Assembly (NCBI GenBank): GCA_965230905.1
Contig: OZ246396.1
Coordinates: 150,001 to 182,000, forward strand
DNA: 32,000 nucleotides
Direction of reading: 5' to 3'
DNA from: Candidatus Saccharimonadota bacterium
GTDB taxonomy: Bacteria > Patescibacteriota > Gracilibacteria > UBA1369 > 2-02-FULL-48-14
A program made the translations under genes and the position numbers. Below, piece by piece: positions 1,353 through 25,109 of this stretch (positions within the stretch are counted from its first letter, which is position 1; every line of letters starts with the position of its first letter). The notes beneath the pieces are model-generated. The model did no database searches. It saw only the letters and a program-made list of their open reading frames with translations, and had not been told where the DNA came from.

Positions 1353-1814
1353 CTATTTATGATACTTCTTACCAGCCAGCAAGGTGAAGGCGCGGTAGAC
1401 TTGCTCCTTTAAAAATACGCGCACCATCTCGTGAGTGAAAGTCATTTTTGAAAGGGCCAGAGTTTGGTGGGCGGCGGCGAGCACTTCGGGGTGAAGCCCG
1501 TGCGAGCCGCCGATGAGAAATTGGACCTTGCCGCTGCCGAAGTCGCGCTCTTTGAGAAGGAGGGCCGCGAACTCGGGCGTGGTGAGGTGTTTTCCGAGTT
1601 CATCCAGGGCGATGATGCGGCATGCGGGGTCGAGTTTTTCGAGGAAGGCTGCTTTTTCTTCGGCTTGAACTTGTTCACGGTCGTCGCGTTTGCTGGGGCT
1701 GAACGTGAGGTTTTCCAGTTTCGCAAAAGGCGTAAGACGTTTTTCGTATTCGGCTTCCAGGCTCGCGAGGGCGGCTTCTTTGGTCTTTCCGACTTGGAGG
1801 ATTTGGATCTTCAT
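1353..1814 (-). CDS. rlmH: 23S rRNA (pseudouridine1915-N3)-methyltransferase RlmH (SPOUT family)
   Basis: 153 aa, the typical RlmH size. N-terminus MKIQILQVGKTK and C-terminal block FLIGGSHGL...LSKMTFTHEM match the RlmH pattern. Confidence 0.85.
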   Translation of the reverse strand: MKIQILQVGKTKEAALASLEAEYEKRLTPFAKLENLTFSPSKRDDREQVQAEEKAAFLEKLDPACRIIALDELGKHLTTPEFAALLLKERDFGSGKVQFLIGGSHGLHPEVLAAAHQTLALSKMTFTHEMVRVFLKEQVYRAFTLLAGKKYHK

Positions 1815-1822
1815 TTACGCTC

Positions 1823-1838
1823 ATTCTAATGCTACAAT
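1823..1838. promoter_or_regulatory. back-to-back divergent -10 boxes in the 31-nt rlmH/rlmD intergenic region
   Basis: Minus strand: TAGAAT (plus coords 1823-1828) lies 8 nt before the rlmH ATG (1814). Plus strand: extended -10 TGcTACAAT (1830-1838) lies 7 nt before the rlmD ATG (1846). Neither gene has a Shine-Dalgarno sequence. Confidence 0.45.
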
Positions 1839-1845
1839 CGCCGCT

Positions 1846-3216
1846 ATGAAACCTAAAAAAGGTCAAAGCGTTGAGATAAAAGTGGATTCCCTGGTGTATG
1901 GAGGAAGTGGAATTGGGCAAATCGATGGATTTAAAATTTTTGTGGAAGGAGCTGCGCCCGGTGACACCGTGGAGGCGAAAATGACCAAAGTGCGCAGCAA
2001 ATATGGTGAGGCCAAGGTTTTGAACGTTTTGCAGCCTTCTCCACAGCGCATTCAGCCGCGTTGCAAACATTTTGGCGTGTGCGGGGGTTGCAAGTGGCAG
2101 TTTTTGGATTACGCGGATCAATGCGAAGTTAAAGAACAACAGGTGAAGGACGCCGTTACGCGCATCGGCGGACTTTCGGCGGATTTGGTGAAACCGATGG
2201 TTCCGAATGAATCGCCGTGGTTTTATAGGAATAAGATGGAATTGTCCTTTGGGATGAGTCTGGAAGGCGAAGATATGCTCGGCTTTTATCCGCCCGGATT
2301 TCACTTTGAAGTTTTCAATGTGGAGGAATGTTTTTTGCAGTCGGAACTAATGGTGGAAATCGTGAAAAAAGTTCGTGCCTTTGCCATTGAAAATCGCATT
2401 CCCGTTTACAATTCTCGCACGCATGAAGGGCTGCTACGCACGCTCACTATTCGCGAAGGAAAAAACACAGGTGAAGTGATGATTATTTTGAGCACGTCCA
2501 CCGGAATTTTTGATCACCGCGATGAGTTTGCAGCGCTGTTTGCCGGCGACCCTCGCATCACGTCTTTGTATTGGAATAGCGTGTACCAAGTGCCTGGCCA
2601 ACCCACGTGGATTGAAGAAAATTTGCTCGCTGGAAAAGAGAGTCTGACGGAAGCTTTGATTCTGGAAAATGGACAAGAACTGCGCTTCGACATCCTCCCC
2701 CAGGCCTTCTTCCAAACCAACACCAAACAAGCAGAAGTTTTGTATTCGCACGTGATGCAAGTGGCTGGCCTCACCGGCGCCGAAGTGGTTTTTGATTTGT
2801 ACTGTGGAACCGGAACCATTGGACTCTTTTGTGCGCACAAGGCCAAGCAAGTGCTGGGCATTGAAATCAATGAATCAGCGGTGGAAAGCGCACGCGGAAA
2901 TGCGCAGAAAAATGGCATCACGAATGCGAGTTTTTATTTGGGCAGTGTGGACCAGCGTCTCAGCGAACTTACGGAAAAACCCGACGTGGTGATTGTGGAC
3001 CCGCCCCGCGCAGGACTGGAAGGAAATGTGGTCGCAAAATGCGCCGCGTTTGGAGCTGCAAAAATCGTGTATGTTTCGTGCAATCCAAGTACCATGGCCC
3101 GGGACCTTAAGCTCTTTTCGGAATGTGGTTACACCACGCAAATGATTCAGCCGGTGGACATGTTTCCGCAAACCTACCACGTCGAAAATATTGCTTTACT
3201 TATAAAAAATGTCTGA
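1846..3216 (+). CDS. rlmD: RumA/RlmD-type 23S rRNA (uracil-5-)-methyltransferase with TRAM domain and Fe-S cysteine cluster
   Basis: The ORF-track frame opens at 1690, but that extension overlaps rlmH. The ATG at 1846 gives MKPKKGQSVEIKVDSL..., a TRAM-like N-terminus. Cys cluster CKHFGVCGGCKWQ, SAM motif DLYCGTGTIG, DPPRAG, and the catalytic-Cys motif VSCNP. Confidence 0.85.
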   Translation: MKPKKGQSVEIKVDSLVYGGSGIGQIDGFKIFVEGAAPGDTVEAKMTKVRSKYGEAKVLNVLQPSPQRIQPRCKHFGVCGGCKWQFLDYADQCEVKEQQVKDAVTRIGGLSADLVKPMVPNESPWFYRNKMELSFGMSLEGEDMLGFYPPGFHFEVFNVEECFLQSELMVEIVKKVRAFAIENRIPVYNSRTHEGLLRTLTIREGKNTGEVMIILSTSTGIFDHRDEFAALFAGDPRITSLYWNSVYQVPGQPTWIEENLLAGKESLTEALILENGQELRFDILPQAFFQTNTKQAEVLYSHVMQVAGLTGAEVVFDLYCGTGTIGLFCAHKAKQVLGIEINESAVESARGNAQKNGITNASFYLGSVDQRLSELTEKPDVVIVDPPRAGLEGNVVAKCAAFGAAKIVYVSCNPSTMARDLKLFSECGYTTQMIQPVDMFPQTYHVENIALLIKNV

Positions 3217-3478
3217 AAATTTTCGTGACGAATATGAAGAGGAAATAACTGAAGATGGGTTCGATTCCTATTTAGAAAAACTGTGCAGCGCCCGCTTTAT
3301 TGATGAAAAAATAGACTTAATTACAAAGGCTAATCAATTGGCTGGAGACAATACTATTCGACTTCTTCATCTGCGAAAAACCCTAATCTCAATGTTTGGA
3401 CAGAGTATTGGAAATGGCACCAACGTGGTTTTGCATTTGCACAATTCTAGAGGCAATGAAGTAGATATCATTATTTAG
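3209..3478 (+). CDS. hypothetical 89-aa protein with an acidic N-terminus
   Basis: The ATG is embedded in the rlmD stop (ATGTCTGA), which implies translational coupling. The ORF is AT-rich. Its end overlaps the convergent 1341-aa gene by 4 nt. No recognisable motif. Confidence 0.4.
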   Translation: MSENFRDEYEEEITEDGFDSYLEKLCSARFIDEKIDLITKANQLAGDNTIRLLHLRKTLISMFGQSIGNGTNVVLHLHNSRGNEVDIII

Positions 3479-6400
3479 GCGGCTTGGGCTGACTGGGATC
3501 CTTCTTCCCAAAGTACATCCATTGCCTGCATTCCGTAGGATGGACTGAAAGAAAACCGCTTGGGTTCTTCAAAATTATAAACCTTGCCAACTCCTGTGAT
3601 TGCAGCATCCATCGTTCTTTCAAAAATACCGCCCGTACGGTTTGTACGAATGGCTTTATTTTGAGAAGTACAAATGCGTTTGAATCCATTCTCTTTTGCA
3701 AATACTTTTATGGAGCTCAACAGGCCTTTGAATAAAGCGGCTTCATCCACTTTATAAAGATAGGTGCTAGAAGGATTGAATGCAGCCGTTAAAGTTTTAC
3801 CATCACCTTCAAAAGCATTTAAAAGTACCACACCCATACAACGATGGGTTTCTGGGTCCTCCAAAATGAGTTCAAAATAGTTCTCCATGTTCCACATACA
3901 GTCTTTGCCAACTTTTTTTGGATTGTCCCCACTCACACACACTCCCCCTACCATACGTGCATTTGCTGTTTCTTTATTTTTTGCGATATATCCATGGAGA
4001 ATTTCTCTTTCGGTACCAGAGGCTGAACTAAATTTTAGAAGCTCGGTAGCTAAAAATTCTTTTTCGTCTTCAAATAAATTTAAGGCATTTTGCACGGTAT
4101 ACGCCTCAAACTGTTGGGCGTCATAAATACCCCCACTTATGTTTTGTTCGGTCTCAAGAAGCTGAGCTACATTTATTTCTCCAAGCTGGAGTTTACTTGG
4201 GTCCACATCGGCCCCCGTTATGTATTCAGCCAGTTGGCGCGTGCGCTCACGCTGAGACCTTAATTGACCATAGAAAGCCTTGGTTCTTTGCTTGGGTGAA
4301 GAACTGGCCACTTCACTTAAACCACGAGTCGATTTCTCGTAGCGCGCAAGGAGTTCTTTGATTTCATCGGGGGTATATTTTTTACCCTTTTTCTCTAGAA
4401 CCTTTGAGATTTGCTTAATAAAGGCGTCCGTCAATCCAAGCTTGCCAGGCTGCATACCTTCTACCTTCGATTTTCTTTCTCCTGAAATTTCACTGCGCGA
4501 TAAGTGTTCAAAATAAAGTGGGATTATTTTTGAGATTTTTGGACTTTTAAAGCCTGCTTGGATCACACGTTTGTTGATTTCTTTCACTCGATCTGAGAAG
4601 AAAGTGTTGAGTTCACAAAGCAAAGCGTAGTCACGATTCGACGACTGGTTTACTCGATCCGTGGTGCCTTGCACGTAATCCCGCACGTCTTCAAAATAAG
4701 CAAATTCATAACTGATCATGAGATTTTTAAGCTCTTTTTCATTCACTTTCTTGTCTCCATACATGGCATCCAAAATGATCATGCACATCTTCTCTTCAAT
4801 ATCCAAGTTCGCTGCTTCAGCGGGACTTAAACGTGTCTCGTGATTTATCTTTGCAAAGTTCTCATCCACCATTTTTAAAACATCGACCTTCATCACTTGG
4901 GGCTCATAATTACAAGTCGCAAATTTTGCCGATATATCCGTTACATTTTTGACTAATTCGTCGGTCTTCCCTTTGTCTAAGCTTTGCCCTTCTTTTACGG
5001 AGATCTGAGACTGACTCATCAAATCAATTTCATAACGCGGACGGATTTTATATCCAGCAATATCTGCACCTCGATCTTCACAACTTTTATTATTCTCGGC
5101 ATTCGTCCATTTCCCAGCGTTGTTTTTATAAACTTCTTTTAGTAAGTCGTCGTAAAAAGGTTCGGTTCTTTCTTGAGCCGTCAGTTTACCGGCGCCCGTC
5201 ATTCTTGACGCTATATCGTTGAGTCTAGCAAGGTAAATCTCCTGCGTTCCTTCTGCTTTAGCTTTTTTATAGCCACTGATGATGGCTGGCGAGAGGACGC
5301 GGTATCGATCTAAAAATTCTAGTACCATTTCCTTGTCACCTGGAGTGATTACTCCTGCCAGAAGACACTGCTCATAGCCTTTGACTATTTCCTCAGCGGA
5401 CTTACCGTGTTTTCCAATCACTTGATTGATGAAGTCGCCACTTGAACGGTCTTTTATTAAGTTATCAAAATGTTCCAGTATCCAATGACAGAAAACTAGC
5501 TGCTTATTGTCTGTAAAAAGGACTGGGCACGCCCTAACAAAAGTCCCAATGAGTTGTAGGCGAATGGTGAGTTCTTTGATGTTTTTTTGGCCTTTAAAAG
5601 CACACTCCATCGTTGGCCCAACAAGGTTCCCATTTTCTATACCATCCACACAGTACTCAAATTTTTCCGAAAATAGCTTAAGCAATCCAAATTCAGATTC
5701 ATCTCGCACCACTTGATCAAAACAATTGAGCAGCCATCGAGTAGCGCTTTTATTTTTTCCCATAAGCAATGCAGGCTCAGACCTCACAAATTTAGTCACT
5801 AAATCTAGTTTTCCAAGCATGGCTGCAATGGATTCTACATCGCCAAAAATACAACATTTTATGTCTTCAGATAGACTGTCATCACCGATTTCTGCGTTCA
5901 AAGTCGCTAAGCCTTCCTTTACCTTGGGCCACGCCTTTTCAAATTCTGCTGGAGACTCTTTATAGTTTTCTAATAATATTTTTACTCCTGAATTGCTTTT
6001 TACACATGTATAGACGTCTGCTATGAGTTTTAGTTTATTTAGGTCCTCGCCATACAGTTCATGATAGAGACAAAGAGACAACCATGGGTCTTCTAGATAT
6101 TTTATTTTGGCGATGTCTTTAAAGATCTGTAAATATTCCATTCCTTCAGCGGGATCCCTTTGATAGACATGAAAAAAGTGCTTAGTGGCGGCCATTAGCT
6201 CATGGCCATAAGGTGTCCGGAATTCTTGAGCCCACAAAATGCAAACCTTTAATGCCTCAAGATCGTCACCATAGATTTCAAATAAATCTAGCGTACTATC
6301 AACACAATCATAGTCCCAATATCCTTTATATTCTTTTCCTAACCCCGTAAAAACCTCTAAATACGCTTGAGCCTGGGCTTCATCACGATCGCGTAAACGT

Positions 6401-7500
6401 AGATAAGCATTGAGAGCTTTTCTATAGTTTTCACGGGAGCCGCCAAGATAGCCCACTGCAAGGACCCAAGGTTCGGCTTTTTCAAAATCTTTTTCTTCTA
6501 CATATTTAAAATTGTACATTCTAGATAAGACAGCTTCTGCCCCTTTTCTTTCTCCTTTTTTGTAGAGACTAAGGATATAAAGCATGTGTTTTAAGTCTCC
6601 AAGGAAGCCGTTGAATTGACCAAAAATACGTACATCTTCAGCCAATGCTTTATATTCGGGATACTTAGTGCCAATGTAGGTGAAGCGTATTTTTAAAGAT
6701 AGGTGCGCTTCTAGACGCATTTCTCCTGTCTTTTTTTGTTCTTCATAAAAGGCTAAACAAGCATCATAAGACTTTCGATCGGTAAGGAACTCTGCGTCAC
6801 ACTCATTTATAATGGTGCCAAACATGGAGCCTAACCTGATAAGATTCATAAAATCGTAGGCCGTTTGAAAACGACTCAGGTCATTTGGATGTTCTTTCGC
6901 TATGCCAACAAGTAAGTCGGAGGCTTTGTCTAAATATTCAGGGAAGTCTCTATAGTAATCAAAGAAATCATTATTGCTCAAGAGCGTCTTGCTTACTTTA
7001 TGAAAGAAATCTGGATTGAATTCATATTGGTCTTTTAGCTGACGCAGCAAGGCAATCTTTCGAAGTGACCCCGATGATGATTCTAACGCTAAAAAATCTT
7101 CGAACACTCCAAAATTCACCTCTAAAATGTCGAAGTTATCGATCAAGCGATAGACGATGCGTACCCCACGCTGGTTGATTTTTTCAAAAAAGATCGGATA
7201 AAACTGTGGATTTTCTTCCAGTTTTTTGAGTAGTTTTTTAAAAACTTTTAAATGCTCTTGGCCGCGGTGCCCAACTATTTCTTCTAATTCTTTAATTTCT
7301 TGTTTATCTTTTTTCTCCAATTGGAGTATTCGCTGGGCTAGTTTTCGTTCTGTAGTATCTCCAATTAAAGCCTTTAAAACTTTATCCGTTGTGAAACTAG
7401 CAGCCATACGAATTTCTTTGTCCGTCATTGCATCCACATCAACTCGAGCCTCTTCGGAAAAGACATCTTCGGGTGCGGATTTTTTCTGCTCGTCAGCCAT
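3475..7500 (-). CDS. 1341-aa protein of unknown function (helical-repeat-like N-terminal two-thirds, distinct Cys/His-bearing C-terminal ~160 aa)
   Basis: Uninterrupted 4026-nt ORF with an ATG start and its own promoter. No signal peptide or TM segment is seen. The C-terminal block is MVGGVCVSGDNP...ETHRCMGVVLLNAFEGDGKTL...; I cannot name a family for it. Confidence 0.8.
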   Translation of the reverse strand: MADEQKKSAPEDVFSEEARVDVDAMTDKEIRMAASFTTDKVLKALIGDTTERKLAQRILQLEKKDKQEIKELEEIVGHRGQEHLKVFKKLLKKLEENPQFYPIFFEKINQRGVRIVYRLIDNFDILEVNFGVFEDFLALESSSGSLRKIALLRQLKDQYEFNPDFFHKVSKTLLSNNDFFDYYRDFPEYLDKASDLLVGIAKEHPNDLSRFQTAYDFMNLIRLGSMFGTIINECDAEFLTDRKSYDACLAFYEEQKKTGEMRLEAHLSLKIRFTYIGTKYPEYKALAEDVRIFGQFNGFLGDLKHMLYILSLYKKGERKGAEAVLSRMYNFKYVEEKDFEKAEPWVLAVGYLGGSRENYRKALNAYLRLRDRDEAQAQAYLEVFTGLGKEYKGYWDYDCVDSTLDLFEIYGDDLEALKVCILWAQEFRTPYGHELMAATKHFFHVYQRDPAEGMEYLQIFKDIAKIKYLEDPWLSLCLYHELYGEDLNKLKLIADVYTCVKSNSGVKILLENYKESPAEFEKAWPKVKEGLATLNAEIGDDSLSEDIKCCIFGDVESIAAMLGKLDLVTKFVRSEPALLMGKNKSATRWLLNCFDQVVRDESEFGLLKLFSEKFEYCVDGIENGNLVGPTMECAFKGQKNIKELTIRLQLIGTFVRACPVLFTDNKQLVFCHWILEHFDNLIKDRSSGDFINQVIGKHGKSAEEIVKGYEQCLLAGVITPGDKEMVLEFLDRYRVLSPAIISGYKKAKAEGTQEIYLARLNDIASRMTGAGKLTAQERTEPFYDDLLKEVYKNNAGKWTNAENNKSCEDRGADIAGYKIRPRYEIDLMSQSQISVKEGQSLDKGKTDELVKNVTDISAKFATCNYEPQVMKVDVLKMVDENFAKINHETRLSPAEAANLDIEEKMCMIILDAMYGDKKVNEKELKNLMISYEFAYFEDVRDYVQGTTDRVNQSSNRDYALLCELNTFFSDRVKEINKRVIQAGFKSPKISKIIPLYFEHLSRSEISGERKSKVEGMQPGKLGLTDAFIKQISKVLEKKGKKYTPDEIKELLARYEKSTRGLSEVASSSPKQRTKAFYGQLRSQRERTRQLAEYITGADVDPSKLQLGEINVAQLLETEQNISGGIYDAQQFEAYTVQNALNLFEDEKEFLATELLKFSSASGTEREILHGYIAKNKETANARMVGGVCVSGDNPKKVGKDCMWNMENYFELILEDPETHRCMGVVLLNAFEGDGKTLTAAFNPSSTYLYKVDEAALFKGLLSSIKVFAKENGFKRICTSQNKAIRTNRTGGIFERTMDAAITGVGKVYNFEEPKRFSFSPSYGMQAMDVLWEEGSQSAQAA

Positions 7501-7518
7501 AGTGAAAATAATCTGATA

Positions 7519-7547
7519 ATTATAGCAGATTTAAGGTTAAAACTCAA
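7519..7547 (-). promoter_or_regulatory. sigma70-type promoter of the 1341-aa gene
   Basis: On the minus strand it reads TTGAGT (7547-7542), 17-nt spacer, TGcTATAAT (-10 at 7524-7519), then 18 nt to the ATG at 7500. The -35 sits right after the cca stop. Confidence 0.55.
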
Positions 7548-7552
7548 CTGAG

Positions 7553-8854
7553 CTAGACTTGTTTCAGCCATTCCAGCGCGGCTTCACGACTCTTCAGCTC
7601 ATGGCTGAGTTGTTTTTCCCATAATTCTTGGAGGATTTTTCCCACTTCAGGGCCGGCTTTGAGGCCGGTGGCTTCCATGATTTCCTCACCTGTTAAAAGC
7701 GGTTTTGGTTTTTCCTTAAAGTGGGCCAGGCAGTCTTCGTAGGCGTTTTTTACTTCAAAATACATGGAAAGATCTTTAGGCGTGGTTCCGGCGGCATCGG
7801 CGTAGAAAAGCAGAAGGAGGTCGGGGAAACGGGGGTCGAGGAACCAGTGGCGTTGGCGGCCGGTGGGCATGTCCAAAAGTTGTTGCATCATGAAATGGTG
7901 CTTCACCACCCAGCTGACGTGTTCAATGGCGCTGCGCGAAAAACGCAAACGGCGCATGATGCGTTCGGCGATTTCGGCAGAGACTTCTGCGTGACCATCG
8001 GTGCGAATTCGTTCCGCGATTTTAAAAGTTTCCGGCTTGCCAATGTCGTGGAAAATCACGGCCCAGTGTGCGAGCAGACCGGCGTCTTCCGGCAAAGATT
8101 TGAGCGCGTTCATGAGGTGAGTCCACACGTCGCCCTCTTGGTGGAATTCCATGGGCTGCGCAAGGCCCTTGCAGGCTTCCAGTTCTGGCAGCACGTAGGG
8201 CAAAACCTCGGTGTCTTGCATGTCTTCAAAAGCCACGGCGGCGGACTTGGCCATGATGATTTTATTCAGCTCATCGCGCACGCGTTCCCAGCTCACTTTG
8301 TCGGCGAGTTGCGCGTGTTTTTTTATGGCGGCGTAAGTGTCTGGATGGTAGCCAAAATTGAGCGTGTTTTTGAATCGGATGGCGCGGATGATGCGCAAAT
8401 GATCTTCCAAAATGCGTTCGTGCGGCACGCCAATAAAACGGATGAGACGATTCGTGAGGTCGTTTTGGCCGCCCACAAAATCCAAAATTTCGTCGCCGAC
8501 TGGGTCGTAAAAAAGTCCGTTGATAGTGAAGTCGCGGCGCTTGGCGTCCTCCTCGGCGTGAGTAAAAGTCACTGCGTCGGGGCGGCGGCCGTCGGAGGTG
8601 CCGCTGTCGCTGCGAAAGGTGGCCACTTCAAAAGTGTGTCCGTCTTCCAGCACGTTTATGACGCCAAAGTTCTTCCCCACCGCGTAAGTTTCGGCAAAGA
8701 GCTTTTCAATTTGTTCGGGCAAAGCGCTGGTGGCGATGTCGTAATCCTTGGGGTCTTTTTTAAGCAGCATGTCGCGCACGCAGCCACCCGCAAAGTAAGC
8801 CTTGTATCCGGCTTTTTGCAAAGTTTTGACGATTTGAATAGCGGTGGAGTGCAT
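7553..8854 (-). CDS. cca: CCA-adding tRNA nucleotidyltransferase with C-terminal HD domain
   Basis: 433 aa. N-terminal class II nucleotidyltransferase motifs YFAGGCVRDMLL...DYDIAT and RDFTINGLFYD. HD motif VIFHDIGKP. Confidence 0.85.
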   Translation of the reverse strand: MHSTAIQIVKTLQKAGYKAYFAGGCVRDMLLKKDPKDYDIATSALPEQIEKLFAETYAVGKNFGVINVLEDGHTFEVATFRSDSGTSDGRRPDAVTFTHAEEDAKRRDFTINGLFYDPVGDEILDFVGGQNDLTNRLIRFIGVPHERILEDHLRIIRAIRFKNTLNFGYHPDTYAAIKKHAQLADKVSWERVRDELNKIIMAKSAAVAFEDMQDTEVLPYVLPELEACKGLAQPMEFHQEGDVWTHLMNALKSLPEDAGLLAHWAVIFHDIGKPETFKIAERIRTDGHAEVSAEIAERIMRRLRFSRSAIEHVSWVVKHHFMMQQLLDMPTGRQRHWFLDPRFPDLLLLFYADAAGTTPKDLSMYFEVKNAYEDCLAHFKEKPKPLLTGEEIMEATGLKAGPEVGKILQELWEKQLSHELKSREAALEWLKQV

Positions 8855-8857
8855 GAG

Positions 8858-9280
8858 TTATAAACTTTGAATGAGTTCTCCTGGTGAGAGGATTTTGAAT
8901 CGAATAGGTGCGTTTTTCATTCTCGATGACTTAAAATCTTTTTTATCTAAGGTTATTAAAGCCTCTACTTTTAAAAATTGTGCTGAATTCAGGATAGGGG
9001 CATCTTTTAAGATTATCCATTCTGTCCATTTTTCAATTTCTTCGTCTGAGTGTTTTATTTGGTCTATTTTTTTGAGCTCACTGACCAATGTATATAAACG
9101 AGGCAGACTGGCTCGACCAACTTTCCGAAGAATATTTCTTTTCGCTTCATTTAAAGCGTACAAACTGGTGGATAGTTCCACCTTGCCAAGCTTGGCCAAT
9201 TCAAAAAGCATAGAAGATCCCCCGTTCGGCGAGAGTGTTGCTGTAAAAAATATATTGGCGTCCAAAAAAAGTGACTTCAT
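8858..9280 (-). CDS. PIN-domain toxin (VapC-like)
   Basis: 140 aa. N-terminal LFLDANIFF with the acidic Asp. Later acidic positions in LKDAPILNSA and LITLDKKDF fit the PIN acidic triad or quartet. It begins 2 nt after the AbrB-type gene. Confidence 0.7.
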   Translation of the reverse strand: MKSLFLDANIFFTATLSPNGGSSMLFELAKLGKVELSTSLYALNEAKRNILRKVGRASLPRLYTLVSELKKIDQIKHSDEEIEKWTEWIILKDAPILNSAQFLKVEALITLDKKDFKSSRMKNAPIRFKILSPGELIQSL

Positions 9281-9282
9281 GC

Positions 9283-9540
9283 TTATTTCTTAAGAAGCTG
9301 TTCCAGTTTTTTGATCAACTTAGCATCTAAGCGATCCTCTGCAATCCACCCTTCAACTTCCTTGTCTGTGTAGAAAGCCGCATCTGAGTTTGGATACTCA
9401 AGCTTCACAAAGAGCACACCTTTGCTAGTGAGCTCAGCCTGTAAAAGAGAATCTTCGGAGATACCTAATTTTTCTCGAAACTCCACTGGGATAGTAACCA
9501 TCCCCTTGGCCTGAGTTCGAACTACTTTAGTTGGTGACAT
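9283..9540 (-). CDS. AbrB/MazE/SpoVT-type antitoxin
   Basis: 85 aa. GMVTIPVEFREKLGI is the swapped-hairpin AbrB-type DNA-binding motif. The gene lies directly upstream of the PIN gene. Confidence 0.7.
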   Translation of the reverse strand: MSPTKVVRTQAKGMVTIPVEFREKLGISEDSLLQAELTSKGVLFVKLEYPNSDAAFYTDKEVEGWIAEDRLDAKLIKKLEQLLKK

Positions 9541-12959: not shown

Positions 12960-13011
12960 TCAAGCAGTCTTTGGAACAAAGTGGGCGTATTTTCAGTTAT
13001 AATACATGCCT

Positions 13012-14319
13012 ATGAAAAAACTTCTCGCCAGCACCATTCTCAGTTTAATGTTCTTTGTGACGTCTGCGAGCGCAGACTTTTCTGACGTGAGTACAGCTCA
13101 TACGCATTATGCGGCCATCACCAGTCTAGTTGAACAGGGGATTTTGCAGGGTTATGAAGATGGAAGTTTTAAACCGGGCAGCAATGTGAACCGGGCGGAG
13201 GCGCTGAAGATTATTTTGATGGGAGCGGGCGTGACGGTGGATGGCGAAAGCAATGCGGGGATTTTGTTCAGTGATGTGGACAGCAGTGATTGGTATTTTG
13301 ATTATGTGAGCACCGCGGTGAGCCTGGGCATTGTGCAGGGTTACAACGACGGGACTTTTAAGCCGGAACAAACGGTGAACCGGGCTGAGGCGATGAAAAT
13401 ATTGCTTGCAGCTGCGGAAGTTTCGGTGAGCGCCCCAGCGACGGCGCCCTTCCCCGATGTGGCGACCAGCGATTGGTTCAGCGGCTACGCGGCTTACGCC
13501 AAGACTTGGAATATTCAACCGCCACAAAGCGACGGACTCTGGCATGCGGAAGACGATATCACTCGCGCGAACTTAGCGGAAATGGTGTACCGCTTGCAGC
13601 AAAAGGACGAACTCGGACACGCCTTTGATGAAGGGACGAACTGGCAGAAAAAAGAATTTCCCACCGTGAATATTTCCATGAAAGTTCCCTTTTCTTGGGG
13701 CTATAAACAGGAAGGAGTGGGCGCGGCGTTTTTGCTCGACCGCGAAAATGACCAGGTGAGTTTGCTCTCGCCATATGAAAATGGAGGCACGATTCTAATG
13801 ACGCGTTACGCGAATTCGGAAGGAACGAGCAGTGGGTCTTTGTTTGCAAATATTGCCGGCAATAGCGTGTGGCAAAGTGGGCAGACCACCCTCAACGGCT
13901 ACCCCAGCCTGGTGGTTTATCACGACGAAGGTATTTATTATCGAGAATGGTATGTGTACATGGAAAATAAGAGCCTAGTGCACCTGGTGGCCCTGCGTGG
14001 TGACGGAGCTTATTCCAATTATTTGGAATGGTTCTTTGAAGCCATGGTGGCCAGCATTGAGTACGACGACACCACCACTTCAGATCTGACGATTGAGGAA
14101 ACGGTGGCTCAGTTGCGCGCAGCGATTCAAGTGGACGGTGTAGGAGCTGACGTTAAGGACTTGCTTGCGGACTGGGAACTCATTGAAACCGACACGATTG
14201 GCGTGGGAACGGGGCCGGTGGATTATTTCTATTCCCCCAGCGCCAATGTCACGATAAAATACGAGCGATCTTTCGATGTAATTCTTGACCTTGAAGAAGG
14301 CGAGACCTCGGCTTTCTAA
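13012..14319 (+). CDS. secreted envelope protein with three N-terminal SLH (S-layer homology) repeats
   Basis: Signal peptide MKKLLASTILSLMFFVTSASA. Three repeats of the type FSDV....Y......L...GI.QGY.DG.FKP...V.RAE. The start may be ATG 13012 or ATG 13006. TATAAT lies at 12998-13003. Confidence 0.8.
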   Translation: MKKLLASTILSLMFFVTSASADFSDVSTAHTHYAAITSLVEQGILQGYEDGSFKPGSNVNRAEALKIILMGAGVTVDGESNAGILFSDVDSSDWYFDYVSTAVSLGIVQGYNDGTFKPEQTVNRAEAMKILLAAAEVSVSAPATAPFPDVATSDWFSGYAAYAKTWNIQPPQSDGLWHAEDDITRANLAEMVYRLQQKDELGHAFDEGTNWQKKEFPTVNISMKVPFSWGYKQEGVGAAFLLDRENDQVSLLSPYENGGTILMTRYANSEGTSSGSLFANIAGNSVWQSGQTTLNGYPSLVVYHDEGIYYREWYVYMENKSLVHLVALRGDGAYSNYLEWFFEAMVASIEYDDTTTSDLTIEETVAQLRAAIQVDGVGADVKDLLADWELIETDTIGVGTGPVDYFYSPSANVTIKYERSFDVILDLEEGETSAF

Positions 14320-14563: not shown

Positions 14564-15699
14564 GCCAATACGACGACGCTGCTCTTGAACTCCACCGCCA
14601 AAACAAGGGTAAGTTAGCCGTGGCCGCGAAAGTAAAAGTGACGAACCGCGAAGAGCTCAGCAAGGCCTACACTCCCGGGGTGGCGGCGGTTTCTTTGGCG
14701 CTCGCAAAAGATCCTTCACTGATGTACGAGCTGACGCCGAAAGGAAACACGGTGGTGGTGGTGAGCGATGGAAGCGCGGTTTTGGGACTCGGAAATGTGG
14801 GTCCGGAAGCGGCCTACCCCGTGATGGAGGGAAAGGCGCTTTTGTTTAAAGAATTCGGCGGACTCGACGCCTACCCACTGGTGCTGAGCACGCAAAACGT
14901 GGATGAAATTGTGGAAATTGTGTGCGCGATTGCGGTGGGATTTGGTGGAATCAATTTGGAAGACATTGCGGCGCCTCGCTGTTTTGAGGTGGAGGCACGC
15001 CTCAAGGAACGGCTGAAAATTCCCGTGTTCCACGACGACCAGCACGGAACCGCGATTGTGGTTTTGGCCGGGCTGATCAATGCGTTGAAAGTGACGGGGC
15101 GCGGTAAGGATTGCAAGGTTGTGGTGAACGGAGCGGGCGCGGCGGGCATTGCCATTGCCGAGCTTTTGATTGCGGCGGGTTTCACGCACTTGGTGGTGCT
15201 GGACACGGTGGGGGCGATTTACGAGGGGCGCGCGGAGAACATGAACTCTGCCAAGGACGCGATTGCTGCGCATACGAATCGCGAAAAAGAGGCCGGCAGT
15301 TTGGCCGACGTACTCGTGGGCGCAGATGTGTTTATTGGGGTTTCCAAGGCGGGGCTCGTGAGTCAGGACATGGTGCGCAGCATGAAAAGTGCGCCGATTG
15401 TGTTTGCCATGGCGAATCCGGATCCGGAAATAACTGAGGCCGATGCCAAGGCGGCGGGCGCCGCGGTGGTGGCCACGGGGCGTAGTGACTCAGCGAATCA
15501 ACTCAACAATGTACTGGTGTTTCCGGGGATTTTCCGCGGCGCGCTGGACGCGCGAATCGGCAGCTTCACGGAAGCCATGTTTTTAAAAGCCGCAGAAGCA
15601 CTCGCTGCGCTCGTGCCGGTGCCGAGCGCTGAAAAAATAATCCCAAGCCCTTTCGAGCCGGGCGTGGCGGCGGTAGTGGCTCAGGCCATTAAGGCTTGA
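14560..15699 (+). CDS. NAD(P)-dependent malic enzyme, short form
   Basis: 379 aa. LSKAYTPGVA, VVSDGSAVLGLGN, FGGINLEDI, HDDQHGTA and the Rossmann motif VVNGAGAAG are typical of the small bacterial malic enzymes. Confidence 0.85.
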   Translation: MSQYDDAALELHRQNKGKLAVAAKVKVTNREELSKAYTPGVAAVSLALAKDPSLMYELTPKGNTVVVVSDGSAVLGLGNVGPEAAYPVMEGKALLFKEFGGLDAYPLVLSTQNVDEIVEIVCAIAVGFGGINLEDIAAPRCFEVEARLKERLKIPVFHDDQHGTAIVVLAGLINALKVTGRGKDCKVVVNGAGAAGIAIAELLIAAGFTHLVVLDTVGAIYEGRAENMNSAKDAIAAHTNREKEAGSLADVLVGADVFIGVSKAGLVSQDMVRSMKSAPIVFAMANPDPEITEADAKAAGAAVVATGRSDSANQLNNVLVFPGIFRGALDARIGSFTEAMFLKAAEALAALVPVPSAEKIIPSPFEPGVAAVVAQAIKA

Positions 15700-18280
15700 G
15701 GAGCGGACCAACGGGACCTTGGGCGCGAGTGGGAATGTAGACGTGCCAGTGACCTCCACTTTTTGTGTTGCCCCGAGCGATGGCGCCTCTTTCTGTTTCA
15801 TCAAAAACCATCATGAATCCACGTGCTTGGTATTCTTCGAGCAATTGGATCATAACGGGACGTAACTTCTCTTCGATTAAGTCCGCATGCGGCCCACGAC
15901 TCCCCTTTTCGGACCAAGTGATTTCATTGCCAGCGGGATCCAGAAAACGTCCGTCCGCTACGTCGGCGGTACGTCCACCGGGGTGCGTTCCTTTGCTGAT
16001 TGAAACTGCATCTTGTTGTTCGGGGCTTCGCATTAAATCCATTATCGATAGTGAATAACCCCCGGAACGTGCTTTAAATTCGGCCGCGAAACGCTGCACA
16101 ATCACAAGCGCGTCTGAGTACAAGGTGGCGTCTAAACCTTCGTAGGGCTTTACCCGGTAACCCTCTCCTTCCATGGGCACGGGAACTCCAGCCGCTTTCG
16201 CTGCTGCGTAAATTTCTTGGTTTTCTCCAACGTTGGTGGAAAAAGCAAATCCATCCCGAGCCGCACGGTCCAGCAAAGGTTCGTAGGCGGTGAAAATATC
16301 CACACGGGGTTTATTGGTCAGAATTTCAGATACTGTCACTGGGCGCTCAGGCATTCCACTTGCACGCCGAAGCATTGCTTCCATGGCTTCAGCACCTTTT
16401 TTAGCTCCACGAGAAACGGTTCCTTTCTTTTTCAACTTAAACACAGGAACCGAATCAGCAGCAGCCGTGGGAATTGCCTGAATATAAGGATTCAGAGCGG
16501 TTGAATCCACCGATTTTAAAAGTGCTGTGGCGGCTCCATACGCTCCATTGTTATGATCAGGGTCTCCTCTTCCGTTATTGATGGCGCCTGCAGAAAAAGA
16601 TGCTATGAAGAGATATCGTTCACTTTCGGGAGCAGAGGTCCAGGCTTTTTTGAAATTAAGATCATTTATTAAAACGTTGAATCCAAGTTCAATGTGGTAC
16701 GCAATAGCCATGATGGTGTAGAACGAATGGGAAGGCGTATCCGTGATCATTGCTGCTACCAAATCCTGATCGTCGTACCTTGTTACCGTTTTCTTTTTTC
16801 CGGTGAAATCTTTTTTCTGCGGAACGAGAAATTTAAAGGAGGGGTCTGAAGTTTGGATATCTCTAAGCTGACTACTTTTTCCGCTCAAAAATAGTTTGAA
16901 TGTGTCTTCTAACAATTGTACTTCTCCCATACTCACCTCTATGTCTCCGACCGCTGGACCGTAGGGCAGATTTCCCGATTCAATGGCAACGGGAAGTATG
17001 TCCAGGAACGCATCACCTGAAAGTTCTGAGAAAAATTCCGCGTGCATAACGGCAAGAACCACAGAGGGCGTCATGTATTTTGCCAGCTGTGGGTCGTAAC
17101 CCAATTCCGCTCCATGTTTATTAAAATACGCACACGCTTTTTCTTGTTCATTCAGCCAAGATTCCAAAGTTACGCTGTTGCTTTTATCAGAGAGTTCATC
17201 AATAACGATGTCATAAAAACCAGCATCGGCCCCTTGGCTTTTTGCCCGTTTTTTATACTCCCAAACTTCTTGAAGATTGTAGAAAGGAAAAGAGGCATCC
17301 AGCACCGTGCCCTGGAGGATTCGTTTTTCTTCTACTTGGCGTGGGGTCATTTTTTTTACAATATCCACGAGCTCATTGTATATTTTGGTTTTCAATATAG
17401 GCTCCAATTGATCGATTTCTTTTTTATTAGCAGGGCGATCTTTTTTAAGTTCATCGAGTTTATCCTGGATTTGAGCTGCAGTTTCCCCCTTGTAGGCTTT
17501 CATTTCGCTTTGACTGGCTACGTTGTAACGCTCAAAAATATCGTGGTAACTGGCGTTGCTAGCTCGGTCTATAACCGCATCCAGAGCCAATAGCTCAGGC
17601 CAAACGTTTTGACTGGGGTCCCGTTTGTACTCCTTCGCTAAAGATTTCAGCATTTTATCCATTTTTCCGTTCAGCTCAGTGATCTCCACATCACCTCCAT
17701 CTCCCAAACTTTCTTTCAATTCCTCATCTTTCTCACTGGCAAGGTCGAAATCGAGATCCAAAAGGAAAGTGCTGCCATCGGGCTGGAGGACATGAATAGA
17801 TTCTGGAAAGTACAAGGTTTTAGTATGGATTCCCGAGAAATCATCTAAGTCTTCGGGATTGAGCGAGCGGCAAAAATAAATCACCGCATCAATGACTTTT
17901 AGTTGGTCAGCCTCAGCCATGCCCTCAAAAACATCGGCAGCCGCTAAGGTTCCTTTAATGAAGTGGTATAAAGTTTTGCCATGGGCCTCCGTGACCTCCG
18001 CCTTCCCCGTTCGATACATGTTGAATTGCCAGTCTTTTTCTTGATGAGACAGCAAAATTTGGTCTTCGGCGGTGTCCACCGGATCTTCCCCAAATCCACA
18101 CCCTTCATTAATTGCAGCGGTTCCACCTAAAACCAGACTGGCTACGGCCACCCGCGCCCAGGTTGGGATTTGTCCCATCAAGTTAATGATCCCTCGGCTG
18201 TTTTCAGCTTCGCGGGCAGCTTCAGGCACGCGCTGGGGCATAGGATCGTTTCCTTCTGGAATGTGAGGATTTTTTGCCAT
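15689..18280 (-). CDS. 863-aa membrane-anchored protein with a C-terminal LAS/M15-type zinc peptidase signature
   Basis: I moved the start to ATG 18280 because the track's TTG at 18322 lies inside the promoter spacer. TM segment WARVAVASLVLGGTAAI. C-terminus: DLMRSPEQQ...GTHPGGRTADVAD (His codon 15983-15985) ...GGHWHV (15743-15751), which fits the R..Q / H..G.A.D / H.H pattern of VanY/M15 peptidases. Confidence 0.75.
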   Translation of the reverse strand: MAKNPHIPEGNDPMPQRVPEAAREAENSRGIINLMGQIPTWARVAVASLVLGGTAAINEGCGFGEDPVDTAEDQILLSHQEKDWQFNMYRTGKAEVTEAHGKTLYHFIKGTLAAADVFEGMAEADQLKVIDAVIYFCRSLNPEDLDDFSGIHTKTLYFPESIHVLQPDGSTFLLDLDFDLASEKDEELKESLGDGGDVEITELNGKMDKMLKSLAKEYKRDPSQNVWPELLALDAVIDRASNASYHDIFERYNVASQSEMKAYKGETAAQIQDKLDELKKDRPANKKEIDQLEPILKTKIYNELVDIVKKMTPRQVEEKRILQGTVLDASFPFYNLQEVWEYKKRAKSQGADAGFYDIVIDELSDKSNSVTLESWLNEQEKACAYFNKHGAELGYDPQLAKYMTPSVVLAVMHAEFFSELSGDAFLDILPVAIESGNLPYGPAVGDIEVSMGEVQLLEDTFKLFLSGKSSQLRDIQTSDPSFKFLVPQKKDFTGKKKTVTRYDDQDLVAAMITDTPSHSFYTIMAIAYHIELGFNVLINDLNFKKAWTSAPESERYLFIASFSAGAINNGRGDPDHNNGAYGAATALLKSVDSTALNPYIQAIPTAAADSVPVFKLKKKGTVSRGAKKGAEAMEAMLRRASGMPERPVTVSEILTNKPRVDIFTAYEPLLDRAARDGFAFSTNVGENQEIYAAAKAAGVPVPMEGEGYRVKPYEGLDATLYSDALVIVQRFAAEFKARSGGYSLSIMDLMRSPEQQDAVSISKGTHPGGRTADVADGRFLDPAGNEITWSEKGSRGPHADLIEEKLRPVMIQLLEEYQARGFMMVFDETERGAIARGNTKSGGHWHVYIPTRAQGPVGPLLKP

Positions 18281-18301
18281 TGCTTTGTTGGAGATTAGAA
18301 T

Positions 18302-18330
18302 ATTATGATCTCTTTTACGCAACCTGTCAA
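18302..18330 (-). promoter_or_regulatory. sigma70-type promoter of the 863-aa gene
   Basis: On the minus strand it reads TTGACA (18330-18325), 17-nt spacer, CATAAT (18307-18302), then 21 nt to ATG 18280. Confidence 0.6.
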
Positions 18331-18418: not shown

Positions 18419-21091
18419 ATGAATACCAACGACCCAAATCAAAGCAATGGAGCCGAGCAAAACCACGACCTCAATAGATACGGCCTCAATGAGGAACACC
18501 TGAAACAGGTCAATGCCTGGGCCGAGATCCTCGTTTCTTCAAAAACATGGCCACTGGATCACACAGTCGGGATTGCTGCGCATCTCAAACAAAAACTGAT
18601 CGAGCTGCAAGTTTTTGAGCAAGGCGCTTATGAAAACTGCATGATTCAACTCCAAAATGCCCTGCTCACGAATCCAGGTTTATTTGAGCAGAAAGACTCG
18701 ATGAGAACTTATGTAGCAAGAAGCATCGGCATTTATTTTCAAAGAAGACTCTACGATATTTTGATGGAAGGAGGAGTTCAAGATGGCTACTTTCAGGATT
18801 TTCGAAGAATAGTGCTCCAATTGAGACGGACTATGCAAAACAAATGGCCAAGTGACAAGCTTGACGACTTGCTCGTTGACATAGATTTGCAAGTCGCCTT
18901 GAACGCCGACCCTCAAAGGCTTGACGTAAAAGAGCTAAGGATTTACCAAAACATGGCTAGGACAGTCAACACCGTACAGGTGGACAGAGATGAAAAATGC
19001 ATGACCGATAGAGCCTACCTAATGGAAGGGCCCATTTATTTGTATGCTGATTCCATACAAAGCAAAAGTGACAATTTAGGCGAAGATCACCTGATTCAAA
19101 AAGGCCGCTTGACCGTAGAAGAAATCAACGAGCGCTACAATAAAGAAAATGATTTTTTGACATACCTGAGTAAAGCGATCATTCAACACAAGGCCAGCGG
19201 CTCAAAAAACAAATTCGCAATAAATCTGGACCCCCAGGAAGAGGGCGATGCCGTCAAAAGAAACCTTTTCCCTTCTTCTTATCATCAACTTCTAACACGA
19301 ATACAGAAGGTGGCCGAAACCTCCGGCAGTAAACAGGACTTGCTCAACGCACCAATTTCAATCAAAGCCTGGCTGAACACTTTCGAAAAGGACTTTGAAG
19401 GAGACCGCATCGCCTATATTCATGACCGTAAGAATCCGGGCTTCGCAAGCGCAGCTCAAAAACACCTGAATAAAGCCAACTCCGATGGGCTTTTTAAAAC
19501 CCTGCTCTACGCCGCGAGCCATTCCAACAACAACGGTGAGATCGTACTGGCCCTGGTAATGCTTGCGAGGCACTGCGAAGAAGATGAAGGGGAAACTCCC
19601 ACCCATCGATTGTATAAAATTGTGACGGAACTTCTAAAAGAGCCGGACCTTAAAAAACTTTTCATTTTCTTTGCAGCTTTCGAAGATCCGGCGAAAATGA
19701 TGCAATTGCTCATGACGGCCGTGTACGCCAAAGAAGGCGGTGTAAAATACACCGTCAAAAAAGACCGGGTTGATTTTAATAAAATTAAGATTACAGAGAT
19801 CCTGGATCAAGAAACAATACAAAAGTTCTATCAAAAACTCTTAAACATTCAAGGCGACAGCAAATCCGTTGAAAAAGCGGTGAATTCGATAGACACAAAA
19901 ACATTCAAAGAACCTGACACTCTTTGGGATGAAATGGCGGCGAAGCGATCCATCGTGCTCGGTGAAACCCAAGAGATAGACATGACAGACCTCTTGCCAA
20001 GCAGCTGGCACATCTTCATCAGCCCAAAAAATGGCACGGATACATATTCACTCAAAATCAATATTACAGAAAAGAAAGGCCACCGATTGGATGTGATTGA
20101 AATCCATGGAAAACTCGATGAAAACGGATTTAAATCGGGCGTGATTTTATCGGATGAGGTCCGAGCTAAAATCCATAAAATAGGTTCCACGGCCGCCCAC
20201 CGTTATTTTGTACGCGCAAAAATAGAGGATGAAGTCAAAAGCAAACTCGAAGACAAATTGGGAGAAATAACAGGAGCAGATCCTGATGACGGAGCAGGCA
20301 CTGATCTAAATGATACAGGGGCAGAACCCGAACAACCTGAAACAAGCCTGCCTCCGGAGGAGAACGCCAAAGAACCAAACGTCACCCTTCCGGTCAAAGA
20401 AGCCAGAGCCAGCAAAGACAGCTTGAGCATAGACATTCGGGCCATCGACAGAGAAGACGACTCACAGCGTCAGAAGCGCATTCGTAAAAAAATGCTGCAC
20501 TCCAACAAGATGCTTAAAAAACACCTGACCGGAGAAAGCCTATCCGATGAAGATTTAAAGGAACTGCTGCTCTTTAGAAAAGAAGCCAGCAGCATGGCCG
20601 CGGGAGAAAGCGTTTACCCTCTCATCAAAGACCCTCAAGAAAGACGTGCACTTTTGACAGAAGACCCCACTGGCAAAAATCTTTGGGTAATGGTGAGATG
20701 CCCTCACTCCAAAGCGGCAGGCTTTTACCTTCACAAGCCAGGCAGCAAGGCCAGTGGACCCGTTTTATTCGATGTAGAAAAAGTAAAAGCCACCGATCAC
20801 TCGGTTTGGAGCTACGAGGTTTATTTGGACAACGGCTTTGAACCCATGGGAGACAAAGAGCTCAAGCCTTACGACAGCATTGCCGGCCTCAAAGCGGATG
20901 CCGACCCAAAGTTGGAAGCCCTCATCAACGGAATCAAAAAGGCTTACCCCGAAAACGAAGCTTACGCTAAAAATGCCATCCAAGGTTCCACGGCTACCCT
21001 GCACGTGCCAAACCAGCTCAGCAACCGCATTTTCAATCAAGGCACTTACATCAGCATGGAAGAGTTTTTAAAGATACAGGTGACAAAATAG
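18419..21091 (+). CDS. 890-aa protein of unknown function with an internal acidic/Pro-rich linker
   Basis: Long ATG-started ORF with no signal peptide or TM segment. Low-complexity stretch GADPDDGAGTDLNDTGAEPEQPETSLPPEENAKEP. No family recognised. Confidence 0.8.
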   Translation: MNTNDPNQSNGAEQNHDLNRYGLNEEHLKQVNAWAEILVSSKTWPLDHTVGIAAHLKQKLIELQVFEQGAYENCMIQLQNALLTNPGLFEQKDSMRTYVARSIGIYFQRRLYDILMEGGVQDGYFQDFRRIVLQLRRTMQNKWPSDKLDDLLVDIDLQVALNADPQRLDVKELRIYQNMARTVNTVQVDRDEKCMTDRAYLMEGPIYLYADSIQSKSDNLGEDHLIQKGRLTVEEINERYNKENDFLTYLSKAIIQHKASGSKNKFAINLDPQEEGDAVKRNLFPSSYHQLLTRIQKVAETSGSKQDLLNAPISIKAWLNTFEKDFEGDRIAYIHDRKNPGFASAAQKHLNKANSDGLFKTLLYAASHSNNNGEIVLALVMLARHCEEDEGETPTHRLYKIVTELLKEPDLKKLFIFFAAFEDPAKMMQLLMTAVYAKEGGVKYTVKKDRVDFNKIKITEILDQETIQKFYQKLLNIQGDSKSVEKAVNSIDTKTFKEPDTLWDEMAAKRSIVLGETQEIDMTDLLPSSWHIFISPKNGTDTYSLKINITEKKGHRLDVIEIHGKLDENGFKSGVILSDEVRAKIHKIGSTAAHRYFVRAKIEDEVKSKLEDKLGEITGADPDDGAGTDLNDTGAEPEQPETSLPPEENAKEPNVTLPVKEARASKDSLSIDIRAIDREDDSQRQKRIRKKMLHSNKMLKKHLTGESLSDEDLKELLLFRKEASSMAAGESVYPLIKDPQERRALLTEDPTGKNLWVMVRCPHSKAAGFYLHKPGSKASGPVLFDVEKVKATDHSVWSYEVYLDNGFEPMGDKELKPYDSIAGLKADADPKLEALINGIKKAYPENEAYAKNAIQGSTATLHVPNQLSNRIFNQGTYISMEEFLKIQVTK

Positions 21092-23661: not shown

Positions 23662-23735
23662 TGGTGGACCTGCGGGGATTCGAACCCCGGTCCTTAAGTT
23701 GACAATTCTTAGAACGGCAACCAATTCCCAGGCCC
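23662..23735 (-). tRNA. 74-nt tRNA-like gene with encoded CCA, apparent anticodon UGU (Thr), non-canonical features
   Basis: Minus-strand sequence: GGGCCTG GG AATTGGTTGCCGTT C TAAGA ATTGTCA ACTTA AGGAC CGGGG TTCGAAT CCCCG CAGGTCC A CCA. The acceptor stem (with G3:U70) and T arm are perfect. Only 17 nt occupy positions 8-26. The anticodon stem has an A:A mismatch at 31:39. Position 37 is C. Confidence 0.55.
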
Positions 23736-25094: not shown

Positions 25095-25109
25095 ATATGT
25101 CAAATTAGC

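Follow-up and report, generated by a model that had tools for sequence, protein, structure and literature searches.

A giant gene between rlmD and cca belongs to an unnamed, chiefly patescibacterial protein family with a predicted GNAT-like C-terminal domain

We analysed a 32,000-nt stretch of contig OZ246396.1 from a Candidatus Saccharimonadota bacterium (assembly GCA_965230905.1, positions 150,001 to 182,000 of the forward strand; hereafter, the window) and focused on the giant gene that lies between rlmD and cca and encodes a protein of 1341 aa. We found that the C-terminal ~690 aa of this protein are a shared module, the defining part of an as yet unnamed family that occurs chiefly in Patescibacteria (candidate phyla radiation, CPR). 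The module consists of a conserved all-helical domain followed by a last domain of ~180 aa, which is predicted to be a highly divergent GNAT fold without GNAT sequence similarity. We have high confidence in this descriptive part, that is, the family, the domain layout, the fold and the history of the locus. The best explanation as a whole, in which our confidence is moderate, is a soluble multi-domain accessory protein with its own promoter, probably of the acyl-transferase type.

The module family and its predicted structure

A preliminary description of this DNA, made from the letters alone, had called the giant protein an orphan, which proved to be false. An exhaustive HMMER search with its residues 142-1341 against 1.84 billion cluster representatives (50%-identity clusters) retrieved 240 representatives at E ≤ 1e-3, of which 135 reached E ≤ 1e-30, so the family holds at least 240 such clusters. 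Nearly all the alignments spanned query residues ~520-1192, which correspond to residues ~660-1333 of the protein, and in each of the 72 complete copies the end of the module coincides with the C-terminus of the protein (protein lengths 743-1797 aa). Overall, the proteins bearing the module are about 750-2100 aa long, plus some shorter fragments, and their N-termini are unrelated. The exhaustive search was needed to see the family: a word-index homologue search with the full protein retrieved itself alone, and the module alignment retrieved nine matches. Families with hundreds of members can thus escape a word-index search.

The window protein presents 28-60% identity to the family representatives and aligns along the entire module with 74 other complete modules. 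The alignment of these 75 modules has 114 positions conserved at 85% or more; the window protein keeps 105 and deviates at nine. All the family motifs (GGVC, NPSSTY, IRTNRTGG, and FS-x-x-P-x-Y...W) are found in its module.

No characterised family claims the whole protein. Searches of Pfam, NCBIfam, PADLOC, PHROGs, and PDB sequences gave nothing real, whether the query was the giant protein, one of five fragments of it, or a profile built from 9-40 members. Matches of the family profile to dynactin and to designed helical bundles were rejected because they stem from low-complexity N-terminal columns. When 44 full-length members were scanned against Pfam, one presented N-terminal HEAT repeats, the longest ones gave nothing informative, and none had a match over the module. 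A literature search found no paper describing the module family.

Record titles and source names of the family members are mostly patescibacterial (Parcubacteria, Nomurabacteria, Saccharibacteria, Taylorbacteria, Kerfeldbacteria, and Minisyncoccia), and several metagenome loci come from Hainich groundwater, judging by their contig names; the window probably has the same origin. The Bdellovibrionales metagenome-assembled genome (MAG) HKST-UBA20 contains two divergent module paralogues on separate contigs (L017 3854-5548 and L018 3403-5427), each 28-29% identical to the window protein, and one module fragment is labelled Planctomycetota. Five SPIRE-style MAGs titled Gammaproteobacteria or Pseudomonadales (L003, L004, L006, L007, and L012) carry members 38-48% identical to the window protein. 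These last labels are doubtful and may be wrong, and a spread into Gammaproteobacteria is questionable, since the SecA adjoining the module gene in L007, titled Gammaproteobacteria, is no closer to Escherichia coli SecA (800 bits) than to that of Bacillus subtilis (814 bits), and a DUF4012 gene flanks the module gene in L003. Clustering of flanking ORFs (open reading frames), in 18 and then in 65 loci, identified no conserved gene neighbour beyond housekeeping coincidences.

We modelled residues 650-1341 (692 aa) with AlphaFold2 from a 40-sequence alignment and obtained a mean pLDDT (predicted local distance difference test) of 84.1 and a pTM (predicted TM-score) of 0.62. A single-sequence model of the last 250 aa was too low for use (pLDDT 34). 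The model separates two domains (Table 1). The all-helical one includes one small beta-hairpin and carries the motifs YPNNxGxW...CxDRSxDL...PRYxIDL, GTxDRVxxAxNxDYALLxEL, and RTxAFYGQLRSQRxxT. It had no Foldseek match with a probability above 0.55 and no match in Pfam or PDB sequences.

The C-terminal domain presents the element order b1-a1-a2-b2-b3-b4-a3-b5-a4-b6-b7 (module residues 518-683), which is the GNAT topology, and its motifs are ARMVGGVCVSGDNP, NPSSTYLY, and IRTNRTGGxFE. In Foldseek searches of PDB and BFVD, all the matches with a probability of at least 0.9 are GNATs (probability 0.9-1.0, and 0.97-1.0 for the top ones), among them NatD (4u9w), HP0935 (8iyo), HAT1 (1bob), a ribosomal-protein S5 acetyltransferase (3igr), GNA1 (3t90), and viral N-acetyltransferases. 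The preliminary description had already noticed a compact block at this end of the protein; it is indeed a separate alpha/beta domain, which starts ~26 aa earlier than it had stated.

The N-terminal half is of a different nature. Its first ~390-470 aa are unalignable even with relatives whose rlmD is 72-78% identical, and tblastn of this region against the related loci found nothing. A phmmer comparison of residues 1-660 with the 150 best family members matched P0002 alone, and no part of the query before residue ~390; by BLASTP, the window protein (P0001) and P0002 are 60% identical from residue 470. The degenerate helical repeats that had been proposed here are weakly supported. Two pairs of segments (361-420 with 437-492, and 563-602 with 646-686) scored 63 and 61 in a Smith-Waterman self-comparison, above the maximum of 56 in 3000 shuffles, but neither BLASTP self-comparison nor DNA repeat finders detected internal repeats. 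A few family members show a weak upstream copy of the first ~45 residues of the module. This lineage-specific, fast-evolving region (residues 1 to ~650) is probably made of helices, with weak repetition.

Table 1. Coordinates of the giant gene, its parts and its flanks (positions within the window)
Feature	Position	Strand	Basis or remark
rlmD (23S rRNA U1939 methyltransferase), flank	1846..3216	+	TIGR00479, E 6e-113
89-aa small gene	3209..3478	+	Translation; acidic N-terminus, hydrophobic C-terminus
Giant-protein CDS (coding sequence), 1341 aa	3475..7500	-	ORF list and translation; 4026 nt including the stop, uninterrupted
GNAT-like alpha/beta domain (predicted), residues 1157-1334 (module 508-685)	3499..4032	-	AlphaFold2, pLDDT ~90-96
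Ala1240 (module S591A)	3781-3783	-	Ser 97% conserved
Asn1228 (module H579N), codon AAT	3817..3819	-	His in 74 of 74 other complete modules; strand b3
Conserved all-helical domain, residues 650-1156 (module 1-505)	4033..5553	-	AlphaFold2, pLDDT mostly 80-94
Residues ~468-649, common only to P0002	5554..6099	-	BLASTP; weak internal repeats
Lineage-specific N-terminal region, residues 1 to ~467, hydrophilic	6100..7500	-	No homologue, no signal peptide, no Pfam match
Sigma-70-type promoter-like site, TTGAGT-N17-TATAAT with extended -10 TG	7519..7547	-	Consensus scan, 10 of 12 positions
cca (CCA-adding tRNA nucleotidyltransferase), flank	7553..8854	-	Pfam PolyA_pol, PolyA_pol_RNAbd, HD

The rlmD locus, its small gene and its history

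The ORF list, the translation and the profile matches bear out the uninterrupted minus-strand ORF that had been described between rlmD and cca. Its product is deposited at NCBI as 'MAG: hypothetical protein AAB383_04815 [Patescibacteria group bacterium]', and an identical copy was found on ERZ1292638 NODE_1, a contig of 1.3 Mb. The cca gene lies upstream on the same strand, with a gap of 52 nt between its stop and the giant-gene ATG. The promoter-like site is the best consensus match of the region and stands 18 nt 5' of that ATG. In the orthologue of locus L022, 24 of the 29 positions from -35 to -10 are identical, while the adjoining coding sequences are unalignable. Both the scan and this conservation in one relative back the earlier claim that the gene has its own promoter.

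The leader was also said to lack a Shine-Dalgarno sequence. The motif is missing, but this is not peculiar to the giant gene: none of the 21 long ORFs of the window is preceded by a Shine-Dalgarno-like motif within 20 nt of its start. Moreover, several ORFs of the window have a TATAAT within ~10 nt of the ATG, e.g. at 13005, 28183, and 31059. Together, these observations suggest that leaderless or short-leader translation is widespread in the source genome.

We compared the locus with those of relatives whose rlmD is 72-78% identical. In L022, which encodes P0002 (60% identical from residue 470), the giant gene and rlmD (72% identical) are convergent, with an overlap of 58 nt, and the genes that follow (rlmH, PGA_cap, beta-CASP, and NUDIX) are arranged in the same order as in the window. 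In L021, which encodes P0153 (66% identical), the giant gene is also convergent with rlmD (78% identical), and an 88-aa ORF and a Peptidase_M23 gene are present. The same position convergent with rlmD in two relatives argues against a recent insertion. In this clade, the giant gene is an old resident of the rlmD locus, in place since before the three lineages split.

At the composition level, the preliminary description had found the segment richer in AT than its flanks, also in codon choice, and our analyses confirmed it. The giant gene has a GC content of 0.404 and a GC3 (GC content at third codon positions) of 0.373, compared with GC3 values of 0.53-0.64 for the flanking genes rlmD and cca. 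In tetranucleotide composition, no segment of the window deviates more strongly (z=2.5). Its GC is below that of rlmD in the window, L021, and L022, and below that of the flanks in 30 of the 34 homologous loci with enough flank (mean difference -0.035). Thus, the AT-richness is a family trait and not the mark of a recent import, and we infer that it is due to weak codon-level constraint on an accessory gene. This shows that local AT-richness can be intrinsic to a gene family rather than a sign of recent transfer.

Next to the 3' end of the giant gene, the 89-aa small ORF starts with an ATG located 5 nt ahead of the rlmD stop codon, which gives an 8-nt overlap with the rlmD end (ATGTCTGA). At its other end, its stop and the convergent stop of the giant gene share 4 nt (3475-3478). 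The two genes had been described as physically interlocked; the overlap of the stops is real, but the start does not lie inside the rlmD stop codon. The small ORF had no match in Pfam, NCBIfam, PADLOC, or PHROG and no relatives in JGI metagenomes, and a search among 5.8 billion clusters gave a 99%-identical copy as the sole other match. Its positional homologue in L021 is the 88-aa ORF, which overlaps the rlmD stop by 4 nt, is 32-37% identical and has an acidic N-terminus too (Smith-Waterman score 104, shuffle maximum 61, z=18).

The 1341-aa and 89-aa genes do not co-occur beyond the immediate clade: L022 lacks the small ORF, and so do a further 17 genome-assembly and 47 metagenome loci carrying the giant gene (65 in all). 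In L021, the Peptidase_M23 gene (L021 2001-2519, minus strand) stands between the small ORF and the giant gene. Since this gene has no counterpart in the window or in L022, the junction was rearranged among close relatives. Because of its absence from L022 and 64 further loci, the small ORF is not a partner of the giant protein, as had been suggested, but a real, fast-evolving small gene joined to the rlmD end. An effector or toxin with a cognate small partner was therefore rejected, the small-ORF family being found only in the window genome and L021.

Another explanation, which builds on the preliminary description, takes these features as a recent AT-rich island between rlmD and cca, made up of an orphan giant gene and a small partner in an effector-immunity or toxin-antitoxin-like pair. 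This explanation has some observations on its side, namely the strongest compositional outlier of the window, the overlapping stops, a small ORF that is AT-rich too (GC 0.363), and an AT-rich PIN/MazE-like pair just past cca. However, orthologues occupy the same position in two relatives, low GC is found family-wide, and the giant gene borders showed no flanking repeats, integrase or tRNA (the sole tRNA of the window is 16 kb off). In addition, the protein is no orphan, there were no PADLOC matches, and the small ORF is attached to rlmD in both genomes that have it and missing from L022 and the 64 further giant-gene loci. We therefore rejected a recently acquired genomic island and consider this explanation largely refuted and very improbable. 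Of the more general claim of an acquired or fast-evolving accessory module, the accessory nature (rare, patchy, and with no conserved neighbour) and the very fast N-terminus hold, whereas the recent acquisition does not. Along the same lines, the module family gave no matches in IMG/VR, INPHARED phages, or PLSDB plasmids, and Rfam had none in the window.

Possible functions of the giant protein

For the function, we tentatively favour an acyl- or aminoacyl-transferase type acting on a macromolecular substrate. The GNAT-like domain would be the catalytic or ligand-binding core of acyl or aminoacyl transfer to a macromolecule, with a protein as the most likely acceptor. Holding this acceptor would be the task of the conserved helical domain, and that of the variable N-terminus would be to fit the enzyme to the partners or locations of each lineage. 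Across members that are 28-50% identical, the module presents 21 invariant and ~60 near-invariant polar, Gly, and Pro residues. The invariant ones are located on the a1-a2 (GGVCVSGDNP), b4-a3 (NPSSTY), and b5-a4 (IRTNRTGG) loops, which build the donor and acceptor sites in GNATs. This location argues for a conserved active or binding site.

Several observations weigh against this transferase function. The GNAT assignment comes from a predicted structure, and its Foldseek E-values are weak (0.026-0.3, in part because the whole 692-aa model was the query), with target TM-scores of 0.36-0.53. At the sequence level, GNAT-clan Pfam models matched the 33 C-terminal domains searched (E ≤ 10) only once (Acetyltransf_4, E 0.085), and a PDB profile search with the C-terminal domain found no GNAT or anything else. 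The hhalign comparison with the RimI profile gave a probability of 0.8% and aligned only a3-b5, in a topologically correct register that places RimI Q76-G81 opposite D/E-x-A-L-F. The Q/R-x-x-G-x-G/A pyrophosphate motif between b4 and a3 is absent and NPSSTYLY-x-VDE takes its place, so that the conserved acidic D603-E604 (module numbering) stand at the position where GNATs bind the pyrophosphate of coenzyme A (CoA). With no CoA motif and these acidic residues, the domain may use another donor or be non-catalytic. Besides, nothing narrows down the substrate: neighbouring genes are not conserved, and the scan of the 44 full-length members gave no N-terminal domain that would be informative. Finally, the window copy itself lacks a family-invariant His, replaced by Asn1228, and it also carries Ala1240 instead of a conserved Ser. 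Both changes are lineage-specific, as the closest relatives, P0153 and P0002, keep the His and the Ser. The window copy may be catalytically altered; should the His serve in catalysis or bind a metal, this copy would be altered or inactive.

Compared with known systems, the closest likeness is to the GNAT superfamily, especially NatD/Naa40, Naa50, Naa30, RimI/RimJ-type enzymes, and HAT1, with which the last ~180 aa share the predicted fold, the strand and helix order and the loops that hold the conserved residues. The module differs by its lack of sequence similarity and of the Q/R-x-x-G-x-G/A motif, and by the fusion of the domain both to the conserved helical domain of 500 aa and to a long N-terminus that varies. 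Moreover, the invariant Cys, His, and RTNRTGG motifs of the module are not known from GNATs. Other transferases (FemX/FemABX, the MprF C-terminal domain, Leu/Phe-tRNA-protein transferase, and toxin-activating acyltransferases such as HlyC/ApxC) have a GNAT-like fold, no canonical CoA motif and do not use acetyl-CoA; they present conserved basic residues that could bind a nucleic-acid or phosphopantetheine donor and, in some cases, a catalytic His. The module may resemble FemX, MprF, or HlyC-type transferases in these respects; none of them is among the confident Foldseek matches (MprF 7f47, probability 0.08) and there was no sequence match.

The eukaryotic Nat complexes (Naa10/Naa15) pair a catalytic GNAT subunit with a large helical, TPR-like auxiliary subunit that positions the protein substrate. 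Here, both units would be fused in one chain; the likeness is purely architectural, and the helical domain had no Foldseek match to Naa15, Naa25, or Naa35. In the GNAT toxins TacT, AtaT, ItaT, and KacT, a single domain of ~170 aa with canonical acetyl-CoA motifs is encoded in an operon with an upstream ribbon-helix-helix antitoxin. The giant protein shares with them the predicted fold and an adjacent small ORF, but it has 1341 aa and no PADLOC or Pfam match, and its small ORF is convergent, linked to rlmD and does not co-occur with it.

The lack of a canonical CoA motif and of sequence similarity to active GNATs would also fit a pseudo-enzyme or scaffold, in which the GNAT-like domain is a non-catalytic binding module within a large structural or adaptor protein, and at least the window copy is inactive. 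The pseudo-HAT domain of O-GlcNAcase is a precedent for such a module. The H1228N and S1240A changes at invariant or near-invariant positions, the mostly helical AlphaFold2 model and the HEAT repeats of one family member point in the same direction. Nevertheless, we consider this explanation unlikely, since the invariant and near-invariant residues are concentrated on the GNAT active-site loops, a pattern typical of catalysis, and the window copy retains an uninterrupted 4-kb ORF. Quite unlikely, too, is a secreted or host-directed effector of an episymbiotic CPR bacterium. The conserved module would then be an enzyme that reaches the inside or the surface of the host cell, and diversifying selection, related to delivery or to recognition of the target, would act on the N-terminus. 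In favour of this, the family centres on Patescibacteria, with two divergent copies in the MAG of a predatory lineage, Bdellovibrionales; the gene is accessory, patchy, and AT-rich; and a very fast N-terminus, polar and disordered-looking across the family, stands beside a well-conserved C-terminus. But polymorphic toxins have the opposite architecture to a conserved C-terminal enzyme with a variable N-terminus, the neighbours are housekeeping genes, and there is no immunity-like partner. The 'Gammaproteobacteria' labels that would widen the host-associated pattern are the doubtful ones.

Secretion is a further difficulty for an effector. In 65 loci and 99 proteins, we detected neither a signal peptide nor a secretion-associated domain, nor any neighbouring gene of a secretion system, and the Pfam scan of the 44 full-length members included no secretion or trafficking domain. 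The giant protein has no signal peptide or transmembrane segment (highest 19-aa Kyte-Doolittle value 1.4), as the preliminary description had noted, and any hydrophobic segment appears in just 3 of the 99 full-length members. The favoured transferase function also has a bolder form, which we regard as improbable. The module would be a new kind of transferase, combining a GNAT core without the CoA loop, an invariant Cys/His pair, perhaps an aminoacyl-tRNA or acyl-ACP (acyl carrier protein) donor, and a novel helical substrate clamp. CPR episymbionts would use it to modify a macromolecule of the host or their own, the hypervariable N-terminus would retarget it, and the His-less window copy would have been inactivated or repurposed.

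Patescibacteria have tiny genomes with much of their coding capacity unannotated, and large conserved proteins without a name are the best candidates for episymbiotic functions. A supposed orphan has now become a defined family, with module boundaries, invariant residues, a confident structural model, and a fold assignment for its C-terminus. The fold class is known and the helical domain is without known relative; nothing is yet mechanistically surprising. If the domain were truly a GNAT working without the canonical CoA loop, it would extend the chemistry of a very large superfamily.

Other features of the window

The longest ORF of rlmD has 508 aa and opens with a TTG 52 codons before Met53 (1690-1845, plus strand), whereas the gene call has 456 aa. 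In both L021 (78% identity) and L022 (72% identity), the alignment with the orthologue begins at Met53, and Met53 of the 508-aa ORF (window position 1846) is most likely the true rlmD start. For cca, the best NCBIfam matches were models of CCA tRNA nucleotidyltransferases, but with scores lower than the curated cut-offs (for NF009814, 269.9 bits against a cut-off of 290, E 3.6e-80).

Directly upstream of cca, at 8858-9540 on the minus strand, we found a PIN-domain ORF (140 aa) and, upstream of it, a MazE/AbrB-like ORF (85 aa), with a GC content of ~0.37-0.40. They look like a type II toxin-antitoxin pair by their domain matches, which are weak (E 2e-5 to 6e-4): MazE_antitoxin just equals its gathering cut-off and PIN is below its own.

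Two large divergent ORFs, of 877 aa (15689-18322, minus strand) and 890 aa (18419-21091, plus strand), presented no Pfam match, no hydrophobic segments and a GC3 below that of their housekeeping neighbours; they have no similarity to the module family or to each other. A 400-aa ORF (23901-25103, minus strand; GC3 0.42), also with no Pfam match, lies directly upstream of the only tRNA of the window, a tRNA-Thr (23662-23735, minus strand). Finally, a 437-aa protein encoded at 13006-14319 on the plus strand, adjoining hisS, matched the S-layer-homology (SLH) domain.

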